A DNA stretch of 64,000 nucleotides, taken from contig CAWJSK010000001.1 of NCBI GenBank assembly GCA_963845535.1, positions 37,396 through 101,395 on the forward strand, written 5' to 3'. A program made the translations under genes and the position numbers. The notes under the pieces are model-generated. The model saw nothing but the letters and a program-made list of their open reading frames with translations. It was not told the origin of the DNA and made no database searches. This DNA comes from an uncultured Spirochaetota bacterium. Lineage in GTDB: Bacteria > Spirochaetota > Spirochaetia > SZUA-6 > Fen-1364. This document shows, piece after piece, positions 3,747-59,406 of this stretch. Numbering within the stretch: position 1 is the first letter of the stretch; every line of letters begins with the position of its first letter.

Positions 3747-4381
3747 CTCCCGGCCTCCTTCGTGCGGGTGGATGCGCGCTTGCGGTCGCCGCGCTCGATT
3801 CCGCGCAGGATCAGGTCCGTGGACAGGCGCAGTTGGGCAAGGTCCGCCATTGAGCGGTCGAACACCCACAGGAGGAGGTTCCCCTCCATGGACGCCATGA
3901 TGGCGAGGGCGATCCGGCGGGAATCAACCGCGCGGAACTCTCCCGCGGCGATCCCCTGCTCGATGACCCTTTGAATACCGTCAATGAAGATCCTGAAGAA
4001 CTCCTGGAAAGCCTTCTTCATGACCTTGTTTCGAAACGCAACGGAATAGAACTCGAACGTGATTGGCATGAGCCTTTCCATCAGCGCGATGTCCTTGACC
4101 ATGGACTCCGCGAACGCGACAAGACGCTCCCGCGCGGGCCCCCCGGCATCAGCAAGGGTGCGGACGCGGTTCAGCTCCGGCCGCATAAGGCGCTCCAGAA
4201 GGGCCACGATGAGCGCGTCCTTGCTCTTGAAGTACCAGTACAGGAGCCCTTTGCTGAGACCGGTCTCCTGGACAATGTCATCCATGCGCGCGCCGCCGAA
4301 CCCCTTCTTGGAAAAGACGCGCGCGGCAGCCTCCACGATCTCAGCCTTGCGCTTGTCACTGACATCAGGTCGAGGCGCCAT
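3743..4381 (-). CDS. TetR/AcrR family transcriptional regulator
   Basis: N-terminal HTH KRKAEIVEAAARVFSKKGFGGARMDDIVQETGLSKGLLYWYFKSKDAL is canonical TetR_N. Confidence 0.92.
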   Translation of the reverse strand: MAPRPDVSDKRKAEIVEAAARVFSKKGFGGARMDDIVQETGLSKGLLYWYFKSKDALIVALLERLMRPELNRVRTLADAGGPARERLVAFAESMVKDIALMERLMPITFEFYSVAFRNKVMKKAFQEFFRIFIDGIQRVIEQGIAAGEFRAVDSRRIALAIMASMEGNLLLWVFDRSMADLAQLRLSTDLILRGIERGDRKRASTRTKEAGR

Positions 4382-24385: not shown

Positions 24386-26101
24386 ATGGCCAAAAGCACA
24401 TTTTCGACTATAGTAGCTTCCGTGCAAAAGAAGCCCTTCATCTGGGAGACGCACGGCATCCACGTGGGGACGGGCGGGGACCACGTGACCCATGGCATTG
24501 ACGACCTGGACAGCATCGTCGAACAGGCCGTCGGAATGGGCTTTCCTTCCCTGACCTTCATCATCCACAGCCCGCGGCTTACGCGCTTCCGTTACGCAAG
24601 CGAACGCGCCACGGACGTGAAGTTCATCCGGGGTGATGCCTCCTATTTCAGCTATACCGACACCATTGCGCGGCTTCGCGAACGCCATGGGGCGCGCATC
24701 GACATCCGCTACGGGGTGGAGCTGGAGTGGCTGGGCACCGGCCTCGGGATGCATTGGAGCAGGGCCAAGCTGTTCCAGGCGCACGGCGCGGACTTTGTGG
24801 TGAGCTCCGTTCATTTCGCCCCCAACGGCGTCCCGTACGACGGCTCCCCGGAGGACACCGAGCGGCTCATCAGGGAGCGCGGCGGCGTGGAGCAGCTTTG
24901 GGCAGGCTACTTTGATGAAGTGATCGAGATGGTGGACGCATCATGGCAATTCACCTCCGCGGTGGGCCACCTCGACCTGCCGAAGCTTTACGCGCCGCTT
25001 CCCTCATGCCTCGCGGAGGATAACGGCGCAGACACGGAGACCGAGCGCCGCCTGTCCACGCTGCTGGAGATGATTGCCGAGCACAACCTTGCCCTGGACG
25101 TGAACCTTGCCGGCCTGCGCAAGGGGGTCGGCATCTATCCGCACCCCAAGATTCTGCAAAGGGCGTATACGCTCGGCATTTCGATTGCCATCGGGACCGA
25201 CACGCATGATCCAGCGGACCTCGGCAAGGACTATGACGCGGGCCTGGAAGCGGTCAGGGCCGCGGGGTATCGATATTACGTCTCCTTCTCCCGTGGCATT
25301 CCCGAGAAGCGGCCGCTCTCCCACGGTCTCGAAGGTCCCTTCAAGGTGCTGAACCTGGGGATGGAGATCCTCAACCACCGTCTGGCCAGAGAGAAAAGGT
25401 TGGAGATCCCTCGGCTCTCTTTCGGCGGCGACTTTCGATCTCTCGCGAAAGTGTTTCCCGAGTCATCGTCCCTGGGATCATTTCATGCCGTGCGCGTGCG
25501 CAAGGAGGAACGGTCCGTCACCATCAGTGATCGGCTTCCCGCCTACGCGGGGGGAGAGACGACGTATCTTTTCTCCCACCATCGGGACCTGCCCGGGACG
25601 CTCGCCCTCTTGTTGAACACGCTGGCCTCGGAGGAGATCAATATCGAGACGGTCTGGCTGAACTCCCTGGAGGACGGCACTGCCACGGCATACCTCACGG
25701 TGGACGGGACTCCGGAGGCCATCCGCGAAGCAGTCGAGTTCGTGCTGGGAACTGCGGGGGACAGGTTCCTCCAGATCGACACAGACGTGCGGGTACGGCT
25801 TCCTCCGGTAAAAAAAGCCGCCATCTACCTCCTTGAGGTGGACGGGGTCTGGCTGCCCATGCCCGTCTCCCGCCAGATGATCATCACCGTTCATGGCAAC
25901 AGGCCCGGCGTCCTGCTCGTCCTCCTCTCGGCGCTTGCGTCCCGCAACGTCAACGTCGTGGACCTTCAGCTCGGCGCGAGGGGAGAAAAAGGGTTTGCCG
26001 CCCTCGGGGTGCAGGGGGATGAAAGAATCGTTGCTGAGGTTTTGACGCAGCTCGGTCCTTCGTACCTTGAAGCATCGCAAATCATTCTGGGAGGTTTTTG
26101 A
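24386..26101 (+). CDS. PHP-domain phosphoesterase (HisJ/histidinol-phosphatase-like) fused to two C-terminal ACT domains
   Basis: PHP-like His/Asp clusters (ETHGIHVG..GDHVTHG, SSVHF, GHLDL, IGTDTHD). Two ACT-like modules follow: HHRDLPGTLALLLNTLASEEINIETV and VHGNRPGVLLVLLSALASRNVNVVDL. Confidence 0.7.
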   Translation: MAKSTFSTIVASVQKKPFIWETHGIHVGTGGDHVTHGIDDLDSIVEQAVGMGFPSLTFIIHSPRLTRFRYASERATDVKFIRGDASYFSYTDTIARLRERHGARIDIRYGVELEWLGTGLGMHWSRAKLFQAHGADFVVSSVHFAPNGVPYDGSPEDTERLIRERGGVEQLWAGYFDEVIEMVDASWQFTSAVGHLDLPKLYAPLPSCLAEDNGADTETERRLSTLLEMIAEHNLALDVNLAGLRKGVGIYPHPKILQRAYTLGISIAIGTDTHDPADLGKDYDAGLEAVRAAGYRYYVSFSRGIPEKRPLSHGLEGPFKVLNLGMEILNHRLAREKRLEIPRLSFGGDFRSLAKVFPESSSLGSFHAVRVRKEERSVTISDRLPAYAGGETTYLFSHHRDLPGTLALLLNTLASEEINIETVWLNSLEDGTATAYLTVDGTPEAIREAVEFVLGTAGDRFLQIDTDVRVRLPPVKKAAIYLLEVDGVWLPMPVSRQMIITVHGNRPGVLLVLLSALASRNVNVVDLQLGARGEKGFAALGVQGDERIVAEVLTQLGPSYLEASQIILGGF

Positions 26102-27102
26102 TGACCGTAAGCTCTTTGTGCCGGGCGGCCCTGCGCCTCCTGCCGCTCGCCGTTGTCGCCATGCCCGTTATCGCCCAGGATCAGGAGCTGCCGGACGGGC
26201 TGTATGCCGAGATCACGACGGAGCGCGGCACCATTGTGTGCTCCCTGGAGTATCAGAAGGCGCCAATGACGGTGTCGAGCTTCGTCGGCCTTGCCGAGGG
26301 GACAATCCCCGCCAACGGCGCTACTGGCAAGAAGTTCTTCGACGGCCTCACTTTTCACAGGGTTGAGCCCGGCTTCGTCATCCAGGGCGGAGACCCCAAC
26401 GGTGACGGGACCGGCGGGCCCGGCTACGAGTTTCCCAACGAGATTCGCCCTGACTTGAGGCATGACCGTGCCGGCACCCTTTCCATGGCGAACGCGGGAC
26501 CGGACACGAACGGGAGCCAGTTCTTCATCACGCTTCGCCAGACGCCGAACCTCGACGGAGGCTACAACGTCTTCGGATACGTTGTGAAAGGGATGGACGT
26601 GGTGAACGCAATCAAGAAAGGCGACAGGATCACCGGCGTGCGCATCCTGCGCGTGGGCGACGCCGCGAAGGCGTTCGTCGTGACCCCGGAGAGCTTCAAC
26701 GCCCTGGTGGCCAAGGCAGAGGAATCCGAGCGCACCGCGGAGCTCGCGCTGATCCAGAAGAAATGGCCCCATCTCACCATGACAAAATCCGGGCTCATGT
26801 ACGAGGTGCTGGAGAAGGGGTCGGGGGGAAGCCCGCCGGCGGGGTCCACGGTCAGTGTGAAATACACCGGCATGCTTCTGGACGGCAAGGTGTTCGACAG
26901 CACGGAGGCCCGCGGCGCACCGGCCGTCCTGCGCGTGGACAGGGTCATCAAGGGATGGACCGAGGCGCTGCTTGCCATGAAGAGGGGAGAGCGACGGATG
27001 CTTGTCATCCCCCCGGAGCTGGCGTACGGGGAAAGGGGCTACCCCGGGGTCATCCCGCCGAACTCCTTCCTGGTGTTCGACGTGCAGCTCATAGATTTCT
27101 GA
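26098..27102 (+). CDS. dual-family peptidyl-prolyl isomerase (cyclophilin domain + FKBP domain), secreted
   Basis: Signal-like N-terminus. Cyclophilin motifs FHRVEPGFVIQGGDPNGDGTGGPGY and LSMANAGPDTNGSQFFI. FKBP motifs VKYTGMLLDGKVFDS, VIKGWTEALLAMKRGERR and LVFDVQLIDF. Confidence 0.88.
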   Translation: MMTVSSLCRAALRLLPLAVVAMPVIAQDQELPDGLYAEITTERGTIVCSLEYQKAPMTVSSFVGLAEGTIPANGATGKKFFDGLTFHRVEPGFVIQGGDPNGDGTGGPGYEFPNEIRPDLRHDRAGTLSMANAGPDTNGSQFFITLRQTPNLDGGYNVFGYVVKGMDVVNAIKKGDRITGVRILRVGDAAKAFVVTPESFNALVAKAEESERTAELALIQKKWPHLTMTKSGLMYEVLEKGSGGSPPAGSTVSVKYTGMLLDGKVFDSTEARGAPAVLRVDRVIKGWTEALLAMKRGERRMLVIPPELAYGERGYPGVIPPNSFLVFDVQLIDF

Positions 27103-27117
27103 ACGCAGAAAAAACCG

Positions 27118-27146
27118 TTGACAGAGCGCGCTTTTGCGCGTATACA
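27118..27146 (+). promoter_or_regulatory. sigma70-like promoter, TTGACA-17 nt-TATACA
   Basis: -35 at 27118-27123 and -10 at 27141-27146, directly upstream of the Trp leader ORF. Confidence 0.45.
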
Positions 27147-27155
27147 GAATCCGCA

Positions 27156-27233
27156 ATGAGCAATGCGCTTTTGTCGACAGTGAACCAGAACTGGTGGTGG
27201 TGGATCACGGGGAGGAAACCGCGGTCCGCCTGA
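27156..27233 (+). CDS. tryptophan-rich leader peptide MSNALLSTVNQNWWWWITGRKPRSA
   Basis: Read in the frame of track ORF 26763..27233. Four consecutive TGG codons at 27192-27203. The stop codon is embedded in the first arm of the alternative hairpins. Located upstream of trpB2. Confidence 0.6.
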   Translation: MSNALLSTVNQNWWWWITGRKPRSA

Positions 27234-27255
27234 AAGGGCGCCAGCGAAAGCTGAG

Positions 27256-27312
27256 ACCGCAGGCGGTTTCCCTCCCCCTGATCGAGAGAGGGTGGCCGCC
27301 CGCGGTTTTTTT
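27256..27312 (+). terminator. attenuator terminator hairpin followed by T7
   Basis: ACCGCAGGCGG (27256-27266) pairs with CCGCCCGCGGT (27296-27306) in 10 of 11 positions. CCCTC/GAGGG extends the helix, and TTTTTTT follows. Confidence 0.55.
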
Positions 27313-27319
27313 GTCGAAA

Positions 27320-27348
27320 GACCCGGGCACAAGCCGGGTCTTTTTTTT
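27320..27348 (+). terminator. second intrinsic terminator, GACCCGG-GCACAAG-CCGGGTC followed by T8
   Basis: Perfect 7-bp stem and an 8-T run, lying 8 nt after the first terminator and 90 nt before the trpB2 start. Confidence 0.6.
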
Positions 27349-27438
27349 AGCGCGGGTACTGTGGGCATTCTGGCGCGGGCCCATCCCGCAAAAAAGCGGC
27401 CGTGTGCCGCGGCGAAGTCTTTTCTCAAGGAGTCTTCC

Positions 27439-28800
27439 ATGACGGACGACAGGATCTTTCAGCTCCCCACCCGGGAGATACCCAAGAAATGGCTCAATAT
27501 CCAGCCATCCCTGCCCGAGCCTGTTCCCCCCATGCTCAGCCCCGCCGACGGCAAGCCCGTTCCCCTGGAAGCGTTCACTCCCCTTTTCCCCATGGGACTG
27601 CTCGAGCAGGAAGTGTCACAGCAGCGGGAGATCAGCATCCCTGACGAAGTGCTCAGGGTGTACTCCCTGTTTCGACCAACCCCCCTCATCAGGGCCAAGT
27701 TCCTGGAGGAAGCTCTGGGCACCCCGGCCACGATCTTTTTCAAGAACGAAAGCGTGACGCCCACCGGCAGCCACAAGCCGAACACCGCCATTCCGCAGGC
27801 CTACTACAACCAGAAAGAAGGCGTGAAGAAGCTCGTCACGGAAACCGGGGCCGGCCAATGGGGCAGCGCGCTTGCATTCGCGGGGGCGCATTTCAACCTC
27901 GAGATCAACGTGTTCATGGTCCGCGCTTCTTTCGAGCAGAAGCCGTACCGCAAGATCATGATGGAAAGCTACGGAGCGAAGGTGCACCCCAGCCCGTCCA
28001 AGGAAACTCAGATCGGGCGGAAGATGCAGGAGGACAAGAAGAACATGCCGGGATCCCTCGGCATCGCCATCAGCGAGGCGGTGGAAGTGGCGGCAACCTC
28101 CAAGGGCACGGTCAAATACTCACTGGGCTCCGTGCTCAACCATGTGCTCATGCACCAGACCGTGATCGGCCTCGAAGCCCGGGCTGTCCTGGAAGACCTC
28201 GGGCTCATGCCGGACATCATCATCGGCTGCCACGGCGGGGGAAGCAATTTCGGAGGCATCTGCCTTCCGTTCATGGAAGACAAGATGAGCGGGAAAAGGA
28301 ACATCGAGTTCGTCGCTTCCGAGCCGCTCGCCTGTCCGTCTCTCAGCAGGGGTGTCTACGCCTACGATTTCGGAGACGCGGGAAAGCTGATCCCGCTCGC
28401 CAAGATGTATACGCTGGGCCACGGGTTCATCCCGCCGGCTGTGCACGCGGGGGGCCTGCGCTATCACGGCGCTGCGCCCATCATATCGCTTCTCGTGGAC
28501 AAGGGGCTCATCCGCGCCGAGGCGCTGCGACAGAAAGAGACGTTCGAGGCGGCGGTGCTCTTTGCCCGCACCGAGGGGATCATCCCCGCCCCCGAGTCCG
28601 CGCACGCCATTGCGTCGGCCATCAGGGCCGCCAAGAAGTGCAAGGAGACCGGGGAGAAGAAAGTGATCCTCTTCAACCTTTCCGGGCATGGCCACTTCGA
28701 CATGGGCGCCTACGAGCAGTACTTTGCCGGGAAGCTCGAAGATTACGAGTACCCCGAAGAGGAAATTCGCAAAGCGGAGCTGGAACTGCCGAAAGTCTAG
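27439..28800 (+). CDS. trpB: TrpB2-type tryptophan synthase beta-like PLP enzyme (stand-alone)
   Basis: The ATG at 27439 follows AAGGAG. The N-terminal extension IPKKWLNIQPSLPEPVPPMLSP, the PLP lysine motif TPTGSHKPNTA, and GCHGGGSNFGG are typical of the TrpB2 (trpB_rel) clade rather than TrpB1. Confidence 0.88.
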   Translation: MTDDRIFQLPTREIPKKWLNIQPSLPEPVPPMLSPADGKPVPLEAFTPLFPMGLLEQEVSQQREISIPDEVLRVYSLFRPTPLIRAKFLEEALGTPATIFFKNESVTPTGSHKPNTAIPQAYYNQKEGVKKLVTETGAGQWGSALAFAGAHFNLEINVFMVRASFEQKPYRKIMMESYGAKVHPSPSKETQIGRKMQEDKKNMPGSLGIAISEAVEVAATSKGTVKYSLGSVLNHVLMHQTVIGLEARAVLEDLGLMPDIIIGCHGGGSNFGGICLPFMEDKMSGKRNIEFVASEPLACPSLSRGVYAYDFGDAGKLIPLAKMYTLGHGFIPPAVHAGGLRYHGAAPIISLLVDKGLIRAEALRQKETFEAAVLFARTEGIIPAPESAHAIASAIRAAKKCKETGEKKVILFNLSGHGHFDMGAYEQYFAGKLEDYEYPEEEIRKAELELPKV

Positions 28801-53953: not shown

Positions 53954-54090
53954 GTTAAGGGAAGGGGAGAAAGAGGTCAGCAACTCTCGTGCTTTCGGGC
54001 ATGGGAGATGTGAGAGCGGGTCAAGCACGTGCTTAGGCATGTGTGAAATAGATGGATAAAAGACGCTCCCGCAAGGGAGTGTTGTATATC

Positions 54091-55637
<1,547 letters not shown>

Positions 55638-55771
55638 GAGATAGCGATTTCGCTCACGCGAAATCGCGGAACTGATCGCTCTCCCTCTACTCTCCTCCCT
55701 TTTCTGCATATACGCCGGATACTTTTAGTTTTCGGCTCTTAAGCCGTCTACACTGGGCGGTTGCAAAGCAC

Positions 55772-55844
55772 GGGGGTATAGCTCAGTGGCTAGAGCGGTG
55801 GCTTTGCAAGCCATAGGTCTGGGGTTCAAGTCCCCATACCTCCA
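55772..55844 (+). tRNA. tRNA-Ala (anticodon UGC)
   Basis: My manual cloverleaf has acceptor GGGGGTA/TACCTCC with the G3:U70 alanine identity pair. The anticodon loop is TTTGCAA and the T-loop is GGTTCAAGTCC. CCA is not encoded. Confidence 0.95.
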
Positions 55845-55903
55845 GGCGGACGAGTGCTGCTGAAAGCAGCACAGGGTCGACAACCTTCGCCTTATCACCT
55901 AGG

Positions 55904-55914
55904 GATCTTTGACA
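55904..55914 (+). promoter_or_regulatory. boxA-like motif GATCTTTGACA (16S-23S spacer)
   Basis: Second copy of the motif found at 53943. Confidence 0.4.
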
Positions 55915-56108
55915 ACATTAGGGAAGGAAGAACGAAGAGGCGCGTAGTCTGTCCATGTGGCACCGGAAAGACGAAGCGCGAGCGAGCGGGGAGGTCTGCC
56001 TGAGGACTGAGCCGCGAGCGAACATGTCTGCGCAGGACGGACCTCACACCTGCCGCGATACCGCACTAGGCGCTCGCTTGCCATATCGTTCGCGATAAGG
56101 GAAAATAT

Positions 56109-59111
<3,003 letters not shown>

Positions 59112-59291
59112 ATTTTCCCCTCCACTTCGCTATTCGCGAAGTGGGGAGGGCTTTGAGCGTGACGCCTAGCGCAGTACTCTGCGCGGAGTCCAGCGCTCGA
59201 AGCCCAAAACGCTAATCGCTTTTCCTCTTCGTTCTTCCCACCGTCTCCCCCCTGTGTGGGGTTGGTGGGGTTCTTTCCCTAAGTGAAGTTT

Positions 59292-59406
<115 letters not shown>

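Follow-up and report, generated by a model that had tools for sequence, protein, structure and literature searches.

In the trp leader of Escherichia coli and other enterobacteria, a short open reading frame (ORF) with tandem UGG codons for tryptophan (Trp, W) precedes RNA segments that can pair as 1:2, 2:3, or 3:4, the last followed by a run of uridines (U-run), and the position of the ribosome decides which of these pairings forms. The terminator (3:4) is stabler than the antiterminator (2:3), and the choice between the two is kinetic. In this work, we describe an element that shares these features and that lies directly upstream of trpB2, a gene for a stand-alone TrpB2-type enzyme, in a stretch of 64,000 nucleotides (nt) from an uncultured Spirochaetota bacterium; this whole stretch is called the window below. 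The element is very probably a tryptophan-responsive, ribosome-mediated transcription attenuator that controls trpB2 in a group of free-living spirochaetes. It differs from the enterobacterial leader in several respects: the ORF has four W codons instead of two and lacks a Shine-Dalgarno sequence (SD), its stop codon is just 3' of the pairing between segments 2 and 3 and within the 1:2 helix, a second terminator follows the first, and the gene downstream is a lone trpB2 rather than trpEDCBA. In addition, it matches no Rfam family in either sequence or structure. No cis-regulatory family reached its gathering score anywhere in the window, and a more permissive search (E <= 10) of 26900-27600 gave chance-level matches to small RNAs, with no Trp_leader (RF00513), no T-box, and no riboswitch; the same scan gave one Leu_leader fragment, on the wrong strand and at 14.6 bits, where the gathering score is 50.

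The enterobacterial his, leu, and thr attenuators consist of six segments that pair either as A:B, C:D, and E:F or as B:C and D:E, and only the last hairpin is a terminator. The element described here would work as the same kind of domino relay, in which a freed segment propagates the change downstream and cancels the last hairpin, but it differs in that 3:4 and 5:6 are both complete intrinsic terminators with U-runs. Candidate trp attenuators have also been predicted in the actinobacteria Corynebacterium and Streptomyces (Seliverstov et al. 2005, PMC1262725). Like the present element, these are predictions from sequence comparison; their leader peptides have UGG codons doubled or tripled, their terminators are rich in G+C and have U-tracts, and conserved complementary triples are common to the antiterminator and the terminator; however, they belong to another phylum, are unrelated in sequence, and precede trp operons, and a tandem terminator is not described for them. 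Note that 'trpB2A' denotes, in C. diphtheriae, a second trp operon that includes trpA and in which trpB2 is simply the second copy of trpB (PMC1262725). In Sinorhizobium meliloti, the attenuator-derived small RNA rnTrpL and the leader peptide peTrpL have demonstrated functions in trans (PMC6614838, PMC7298713). There, as here, a Trp attenuator precedes a single, separately located trp gene, and the terminated leader is, or here would be, a discrete small RNA; the S. meliloti leader, in contrast, has an SD and one terminator and regulates trpE(G).

When open-access full texts were searched for leader peptides or attenuation of trpB2, the actinobacterial survey was the sole match, and nothing relevant was found on tryptophan attenuation by leader peptides in spirochaetes or on tandem or second terminators combined with leader peptides. 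This agrees with the guess, made in an earlier model-generated reading of the window (the original prediction), that such attenuation had no prior description for spirochaetes or for trpB2, absence from these texts not being proof. The logic itself is familiar; what is new is the Spirochaetota lineage, the orphan trpB2 as a target, the conserved, probably leaderless ORF that would act as the sensor, and the conserved dual terminator.

All features of the element are on the + strand and are given here in window coordinates. A sigma-70-type promoter, read from the sequence, occupies 27118-27146 and consists of a -35 hexamer TTGACA (27118-27123), a 17-nt spacer, and a -10 hexamer TATACA (27141-27146). 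The leader ORF (27156-27233) has 25 codons and encodes MSNALLSTVNQNWWWWITGRKPRSA; its ATG at 27156 begins 9 nt past the -10 hexamer with no SD, and its TGA is at 27231-27233. The regulatory codons are four consecutive TGG codons (TGGTGGTGGTGG, 27192-27203). This run of four is unique within the window, and none of 100 dinucleotide-preserving shuffles has one. The first terminator, T1 (3:4; 27253-27312), is a long hairpin rich in G+C that has a core stem formed by 27257-27274 and 27288-27305 and ends in U7 at 27306-27312. The original prediction had named the promoter, the 25-codon ORF with its four TGG codons, and a terminator hairpin with T7, and all of them are present as it described. When 27150-27350 is folded, the minimum free energy (MFE) is -92.2 kcal/mol compared with -74.3 +/- 4.8 in shuffles (z -3.76), that is, the region is far more stable than shuffled sequence. 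A scan with consensus promoter and terminator patterns was not relied on: it skipped the promoter because its -10 rule needs a final T whereas TATACA ends in A, and, of T1, it listed no more than the tip; the second terminator, T2, was skipped since its loop or stem was beyond the limits of the scan.

Two further pairings involve the leader ORF itself. Hairpin 1:2 (27199-27230) is formed by segment 1 (GGUGGAUC, 27199-27206), which lies in the Trp codons, and segment 2b (GGUCCGCC, 27223-27230), with inner pairs CGG/CCG at 27208-27210/27219-27221. The antiterminator 2:3 (27209-27277) is formed by segment 2a (27209-27226) and segment 3 (27255-27277), the latter being the 5' arm of T1, in the register GGGGAGGAAACCGC plus GGUC against GACC plus GCGGUUUCC(C)UCCCC. 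The leader stop codon sits immediately 3' of segment 2a. The locus has the parts by which attenuators are recognized: an ORF with a codon run, an intrinsic terminator, and a mutually exclusive antiterminator that uses the 5' arm of the terminator. The original prediction had proposed an antiterminator and a terminator that exclude each other within a ribosome-mediated scheme. That logic is supported, but the register that it gave, CCGCCTG/CAGGCGG, is a weaker competitor of 27209-27226/27255-27277, which is favoured by both folding and comparison, and the scheme lacked hairpin 1:2 as well as T2.

T2 (5:6; 27316-27348) is a second, complete intrinsic terminator 8 nt beyond the U-run of T1; in its stem, GACCCGG (27320-27326) pairs with CCGGGUC (27334-27340), the helix is extended by AAAG/CUUU, and U8 follows at 27341-27348. 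An alternative pairing was sought because an unregulated terminator at this place would cut both states without a better on/off ratio. The proposed anti-T2 hairpin 4:5 (27298-27328) is formed by GCCCG-C-GGUUUUUU (27298-27311) and GAAAGACCCGGGC (27316-27328) with a loop of 4 nt. Segment 4 of this hairpin is the 3' arm of T1 with its U-run, and segment 5 is an A-rich tract with the 5' arm of T2.

To collect comparable loci, we looked up exact proteins and graded homologues and scanned metagenomes as well as a set with one genome for each species; all loci are from uncultured metagenome-assembled genomes (MAGs) or metagenome contigs. This gave 17 distinct Spirochaetia loci including that of the window, and TrpB2 identity in the 16 others ranges from 96 % down to 68 %; the closest relatives are apparently peat and fen MAGs. 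Upstream of trpB2, all 17 have a TTGAC[AT] -35 hexamer, a spacer of 16-18 nt and a -10-like hexamer, a short ORF with three or four W codons arranged as WWWW, WWW, or WWGW, and a long terminator hairpin T1 with a U-run. The element is retained even in the AT-rich genomes of loci L170 and L171. Fifteen of the 17 loci also have T2; L174 lacks it, and it is unreadable in L007, where N's follow T1. In the latter, a fen MAG contig, two N's at 3980-4001 cut the U-run of T1 directly before the trpB2 SD (GCGGTTTNNAGGAG). L174 (Sediminispirochaeta sp., 72 % TrpB2 identity) has, at 1120-1375, T1 and, close behind the -10 hexamer, a W-run leader, and can be described as a natural single-terminator version. 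A more distant Spirochaetota locus, L175, whose TrpB2 is 62 % identical, has an ordinary promoter without any leader and marks the outer limit of the family.

For the analysis of RNA structure, 16 sequences were folded singly, each cut so as to begin at the first W codon and end at the first U-run. In addition, an alignment (A1) was made with MAFFT and a consensus fold calculated with RNAalifold, and slid partners and 500 column shuffles served as controls. Hairpin 1:2 is in the MFE folds of all 16 sequences and is recovered, together with T1 and T2, by RNAalifold on A1. In this alignment, the outer helix of 1:2 (8 pairs) is 93.8 % paired with compensatory change in 3 pairs, and for the 18 pairs of the T1 helix, the corresponding figures are 94.8 % and 5. 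For the OFF fold as a whole (1:2 with T1 and T2), 94.4 % of the cells are paired versus 39-57 % with slid partners, there are 10 compensatory pairs, and none of the 500 shuffles equals it. Examples in T2 are CCCAGG/CCUGGG in L170 and GCCGGG/CCCGGC in L171. The antiterminator helix appears in all 16 sequences when the 3' arm of T1 is withheld, a procedure that mimics a polymerase yet to make that arm; it then has 12-23 pairs between segments 2 and 3 and an energy of -28 to -49 kcal/mol. Compared with shuffled versions of segment 2, its z scores range from -2.0 to -7.0, with at most 13 of 300 shuffles equal and none in 14 of the 16 sequences. On A1, 88.2 % of the antiterminator cells are paired versus 45-64 % with slid partners, and 6 pairs show compensatory change. 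The W-run ORF, promoter, antiterminator, and terminator are kept with compensatory changes, and the core of the original prediction, a Trp attenuator before a stand-alone TrpB2-type gene, is supported by the conservation across 17 loci and by these changes, as well as by the TrpB2 profile matches, the lack of another recognisable trp gene in the window, and the positions of the leader start codons given below.

The 4:5 hairpin is predicted whenever segment 6, the 3' arm of T2, is withheld. Its 13 pairs are 93.9 % paired on A1 versus 22-68 % with slid partners, 5 of them show compensatory change, and none of the 500 shuffles is equal. The loop is 4-9 nt in most loci. Individual changes include U.G to C-G in L168, C-G to U-A in L170, and, in L173, a linked change across segments 3, 4, and 5 from A-U-A to G-C-G. 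The energy of 4:5 is -13 to -20 kcal/mol in most loci and -6 to -7 in the AT-rich L170 and L171; that of T2 is -11 to -23. All five helices of a six-segment relay, namely 1:2, 3:4, and 5:6 in the repressed fold and 2:3 and 4:5 in the induced one, are supported on A1.

From these elements, we infer a mechanism, which includes the activity of the promoter, leaderless initiation, where the ribosome stands, termination at both T1 and T2, the kinetic order in which the segments fold, and a tryptophan response. The sigma-70-type promoter would produce an mRNA that begins at the leader AUG or a few nt before it, on which a ribosome would load without an SD. When charged tRNA-Trp is plentiful, the ribosome would pass the four UGG codons and reach the stop codon, where, with the footprint sizes assumed here, it would cover about 27216-27243 and thus most of segment 2. 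With segment 2 covered, 3:4 would fold as T1 and transcription would end at U7. Polymerases escaping T1 would meet T2, which could form since segment 4 is locked in T1; T2 would, in other words, act solely on polymerases that have passed a formed T1. When tRNA-Trp is scarce, the ribosome would stall on the UGG run. With W1-W3 in the A site, its leading edge would be at about 27204-27210 under the same assumption, so that segment 1 would be masked and segment 2 free. Free segment 2 would pair with segment 3 before segment 4 exists and block T1. It is proposed in addition that the freed segment 4 with its U-run would pair with segment 5 in a tight hairpin, leaving segment 6 unpaired, so that T2 would be cancelled and the polymerase would reach trpB2. 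Without translation, 1:2, 3:4, and 5:6 would all form and the gene would be off. The same would apply to read-in from the upstream PPIase (peptidyl-prolyl isomerase) gene, which ends at 27102 and is followed by no terminator of its own ahead of the leader promoter: in such transcripts the leader AUG would be internal and without an SD, the leader would stay untranslated, and 1:2, 3:4, and 5:6 would form and cause termination. Most likely, trpB2 would be switched on in this way only when tryptophan runs short.

Several observations weigh against this scheme. The covariation of the antiterminator exceeds that of the shuffles only modestly (28/500 for pairs changed on both sides), which reflects a nearly invariant core and a register shift by MAFFT in the four most distant sequences, and the core stems contain many invariant pairs, so that little can be learned from much of their pairing. 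T2 usually exceeds 4:5 in stability by 2-8 kcal/mol and might displace it in time, which would make T2 constitutive. When equilibrium folds are calculated with a ribosome masking the Trp codons, T1 and T2 still form the MFE structure in most sequences, and T2 is retained in 11 of 15. The induced fold (2:3 with 4:5) is obtained with the masked footprint in three of the 15 (L085, L168, and L169), and L165 forms 2:3 yet keeps T2. L174 carries T1 only, so T2 is not essential. Moreover, part of the 4:5 complementarity would be automatic if T2 arose as a partial duplicate of T1, and segment 6 does resemble segment 4, and segment 5 segment 3, as duplication would give. Because the terminators are preferred at equilibrium, the model depends on co-transcriptional kinetics, like the E. 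coli trp attenuator; equilibrium folding is unable alone to decide a kinetic switch and is used here as a caveat. In the E. coli trp leader, the antiterminator is weaker than the terminator but forms earlier, and the relation of 4:5 to T2 is the same here.

The stability of T2, its retention in those 11 folds, its absence from L174, and the pattern of duplication are also what one would expect if the element were a single-terminator Trp attenuator, T2 an unregulated fail-safe or insulator that lowers both states, and 4:5 a by-product of the copying of T1 together with the match of U-run and A-tract. We regard this as possible but doubtful. A fail-safe of this type brings no gain in on/off ratio, yet T2 has remained fixed at a short distance from T1 while G+C content and neighbouring genes changed. 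Nor would it explain the 5 compensatory pairs of 4:5, its 93.9 % pairing unmatched in 500 shuffles, and the linked changes in L173 and L168, or why an unrelated leader family has the same cross-complementarity at 12 of 13 positions. On balance, we are evenly divided on whether the element is a six-segment relay that cancels T1 and T2 together, a function that we infer from pairing and comparison.

The unrelated family was found outside Spirochaetia. Among about 155 TrpB2 loci of other phyla (mostly about 60 % identical) among the matches listed, W-rich leaders occur in L059, L162, and L069 only; other short 'WW' ORFs at these loci are without a terminator. L059 (1-520, a Deltaproteobacteria MAG) and L162 (about 2040-2500, a related metagenome contig) form a second family with no sequence relationship to the first. 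They have the promoter TTGACA-17-TATATA or TATAGA and a leader ORF preceded by the SD GGAGGA, with the peptides MGKVVGSNAWWCWWWKTESVH and MAQRVASTSWWCWWWNKEEPAH ending in ..WWCWWW(K/N).., and tandem intrinsic terminators upstream of trpB2. The 3' arm of T1, UGCCCACGGCUUU, is complementary to the 5' region of T2, AAAGCCAUGGGCA, at 12 of 13 positions, and the resulting 4:5 hairpin (-19 to -21) equals T2 (-18.6) in stability. This cross-complementarity gives independent support for the relay. Between the terminators and trpB2 in these two loci are about 230 nt with another small ORF preceded by an SD. In L069 (36-195, an Acidobacteria MAG), a third unrelated W-rich leader, MIQALRVPALGANSPNPSRVWAWWCAGMSGGCGA (..RVWAWWCAG..), is followed by a single terminator, GCCCUCCG-GAAG-CGGAGGGC with U6, and an antiterminator can be formed by CCGGAGGG, which is at the end of the leader ORF, and CCCUCCGG. 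The whole element is about 190 nt upstream of trpB2.

Within the Spirochaetia family, the N-terminal half of the leader ORF is free to vary both in length (9-18 codons ahead of the W run) and in sequence, as is expected where the peptide product does not matter. The distance from the W run to the stop codon is kept, at 9-13 codons in the 17 leaders, and the 3' half of the ORF is highly conserved in both nucleotides and peptide (..GR(K/R)PRSA). This conservation can be explained by the pairing of the same nucleotides in 1:2 and 2:3. Alternatively, it may suggest that the short leader RNA, ending at T1 or T2, or the conserved C-terminal peptide, or both, act mainly in trans, as rnTrpL and peTrpL do (PMC6614838, PMC7298713), with control of trpB2 being secondary; two strong terminators would yield a stable, defined small RNA suited to this view. 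However, the conserved nucleotides are exactly those that pair, the element is always attached to trpB2 whatever the neighbour, and a function in trans would add to attenuation in cis rather than replace it. As a main role, trans action is thus unlikely.

The nearly fixed distance from the W run to the stop codon also recalls TnaC. In that system, a single conserved Trp is at a fixed distance from a C-terminal Pro-stop, and termination is Rho-dependent. If a nascent W peptide sensed free tryptophan, instead of a lack of Trp-tRNA, and held the ribosome at the stop codon, this would agree with the nearly fixed 9-13 codons and with the Pro that 13 of the 17 leaders have 4 residues ahead of the stop, and, since the arrested ribosome would mask segment 2, the regulatory sign would be the same. 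Nevertheless, we consider this very improbable: the leaders have three or four W in a row instead of a single critical Trp, they are followed by intrinsic terminators with the full set of 1:2, 2:3, and 3:4 instead of a Rho-dependent site, and the RNA helices account for the spacing. In addition, the residues after the W run vary (ITGRKPRSA, QIDGERPRSV, and RFQGETSWTAPET, for example), and so do the C-termini, which end in Ala, Val, Thr, Arg, or Leu.

The genes upstream of the element differ among the loci. The PPIase gene is present in close relatives, but a metallo-beta-lactamase-fold gene takes its place in L167, a divergent arginine repressor (ArgR) gene in L170 and L171, an M20 peptidase gene in L172, a divergent NDK-like gene in L173, and in L174 a gene for a patatin. 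Since the unit accompanies trpB2 whichever of these neighbours is present, it is to be assigned to trpB2 rather than to the PPIase gene, and because the upstream gene is divergent in L170, L171, and L173, the leader must have its own promoter. The distance from the last (T2) U-run to the trpB2 SD is about 20 nt in L006 and about 10 nt in L167, and in L174, where the U-run of T1 is the last one, the corresponding distance is about 30 nt; these gaps are too short for a promoter, so that trpB2 must be transcribed through the terminator or terminators. Although the PPIase gene has no terminator before T1, and T1 and T2 would also end its transcripts, the idea that a chance ORF sits on PPIase terminators while trpB2 has its own unregulated promoter was rejected as scarcely credible, given that the unit follows trpB2 next to other or divergent genes, that the W run is in 17/17 loci, and that several loci have no room for such a promoter.

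Attenuation by leaderless leader peptides is documented mainly in Deinococcus and Actinobacteria. In the present family, the start codon, taken as the first usable one in frame, follows the -10 hexamer by 6-12 nt at all 17 loci, too closely for an SD to fit between them, and in L173 and L174 it follows by 6 nt, the canonical distance to +1. Judging from this spacing, the leader is probably effectively leaderless, and this would be a conserved property. The original prediction had raised leaderless translation as a possible explanation of an oddity of the window; the spacing turns out to be a regular feature of the family. Mapped leaderless leader peptides, including that of trpEGD, are known from Deinococcus deserti (PMC4007540), and leaderless poly-Cys small ORFs (sORFs) act as attenuators in mycobacteria (bioRxiv 10.1101/834739). 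In both cases, as may also be true here, the regulatory sORF starts at or within about 1 nt of the 5' end of the transcript and sensing needs leaderless translation. The starts there were mapped, whereas here the start is deduced from the spacing to the -10 hexamer, and the phylum, the target, and the terminators differ.

The gene downstream, trpB2 (27439-28800, + strand), encodes a TrpB-like enzyme of 453 amino acids (aa) dependent on pyridoxal 5'-phosphate. The NCBIfam profiles PRK12391 (697 bits, 5.5e-210) and TIGR01415 (652 bits, 2.6e-196) match this protein, which scores far under the cut-off of the canonical TrpB profile TIGR00263, and the assignment as TrpB2 is thereby confirmed. Its ATG is at 27439, one base earlier than the start at 27440 implied before, and an SD, AAGGAG, can be read at 27427-27432; in relatives the SD is AAGGAG or AGGAG, 6-8 nt ahead of the ATG. 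The frame of trpB2 is open upstream as far as a GTG at 27292, within the 3' arm of T1. Translation through T2 from this frame was considered and dropped: there is no SD, and an open frame is expected in G+C-rich DNA. Some database homologues of TrpB2 are 470-489 aa long (P0010, P0037, P0059, and P0075) compared with the usual 451-459 aa, and these longer models may be annotation artefacts, called from upstream starts and swallowing T2.

Between T2 and the trpB2 SD is a third small hairpin (27396-27410, GCGGC-CGUGU-GCCGC), without a U-run on the + strand; in the consensus scan, the window copy is terminator-like on the - strand. A hairpin is also found at this place in L085, L086, L087, L005, L165, and L166, and is missing from L006, L167, L170, and L171. 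The stem letters differ among the relatives (CCGCCCC-GUU-GGGGCGG, CCGCCC-GUGC-GGGCGG, and UCCCCC-AGUUU-GGGGGA) and the pairing is retained. This hairpin may stabilise the 5' end of the read-through mRNA.

No further recognisable trp gene was found in the window, either in the gene lists of identical contigs or by Pfam scans of 30 more ORFs, and the earlier claim to this effect stands. The upstream gene (26098-27102) encodes a fused cyclophilin-type and FKBP-type PPIase with an N-terminal hydrophobic stretch. It is preceded by a gene (24386-26101) for a protein with a HisJ-family histidinol-phosphatase (PHP) domain and C-terminal ACT-like domains. A complete rRNA operon (54088-59406) with 16S, a spacer tRNA (55772-55844), 23S, and 5S is 25 kb downstream. 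Directly 3' of trpB2 and on the same strand, L172 (4394-4582), L173 (4444-4620), and L174 (2764-2916) have a small gene of 50-62 aa with no Pfam match.

The role of stand-alone TrpB2 is debated, with indole salvage, O-phosphoserine-dependent synthesis, and other functions under discussion (PMC1854888, PMC11917138, PMC11085991). According to the accounts of earlier work given in two of these papers, TrpB2 enzymes use O-phospho-L-serine, bind indole tightly, and aid indole salvage in Thermococcus (Busch 2014, Hettwer & Sterner 2002, and Hiyama 2014, as cited in PMC11917138 and PMC11085991). A switch that responds to tryptophan starvation fits a role of TrpB2 in tryptophan supply.

The element would extend leader-peptide attenuation to Spirochaetota and couple it to leaderless translation. 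If the relay is true, a repressed polymerase would face two independent chances of termination, so that repression would be squared while the induced level would not be lowered. Such a relay would be a simple and portable design, with two terminators chained to one sensor, and would be relevant to the engineering of RNA switches and to annotation pipelines. A sensor of Trp-tRNA charging wired to trpB2 would imply that the cell wants the enzyme when tryptophan is short, and the occurrence of W-rich trpB2 leaders in three unrelated lineages (Spirochaetia, a deltaproteobacterium-like group, and an acidobacterium) would make this conclusion on tryptophan supply a general one. If the dual-terminator relay reading is true, it would provide regulatory evidence, from several phyla, that orphan TrpB2 serves the supply of tryptophan, for example, by indole salvage.

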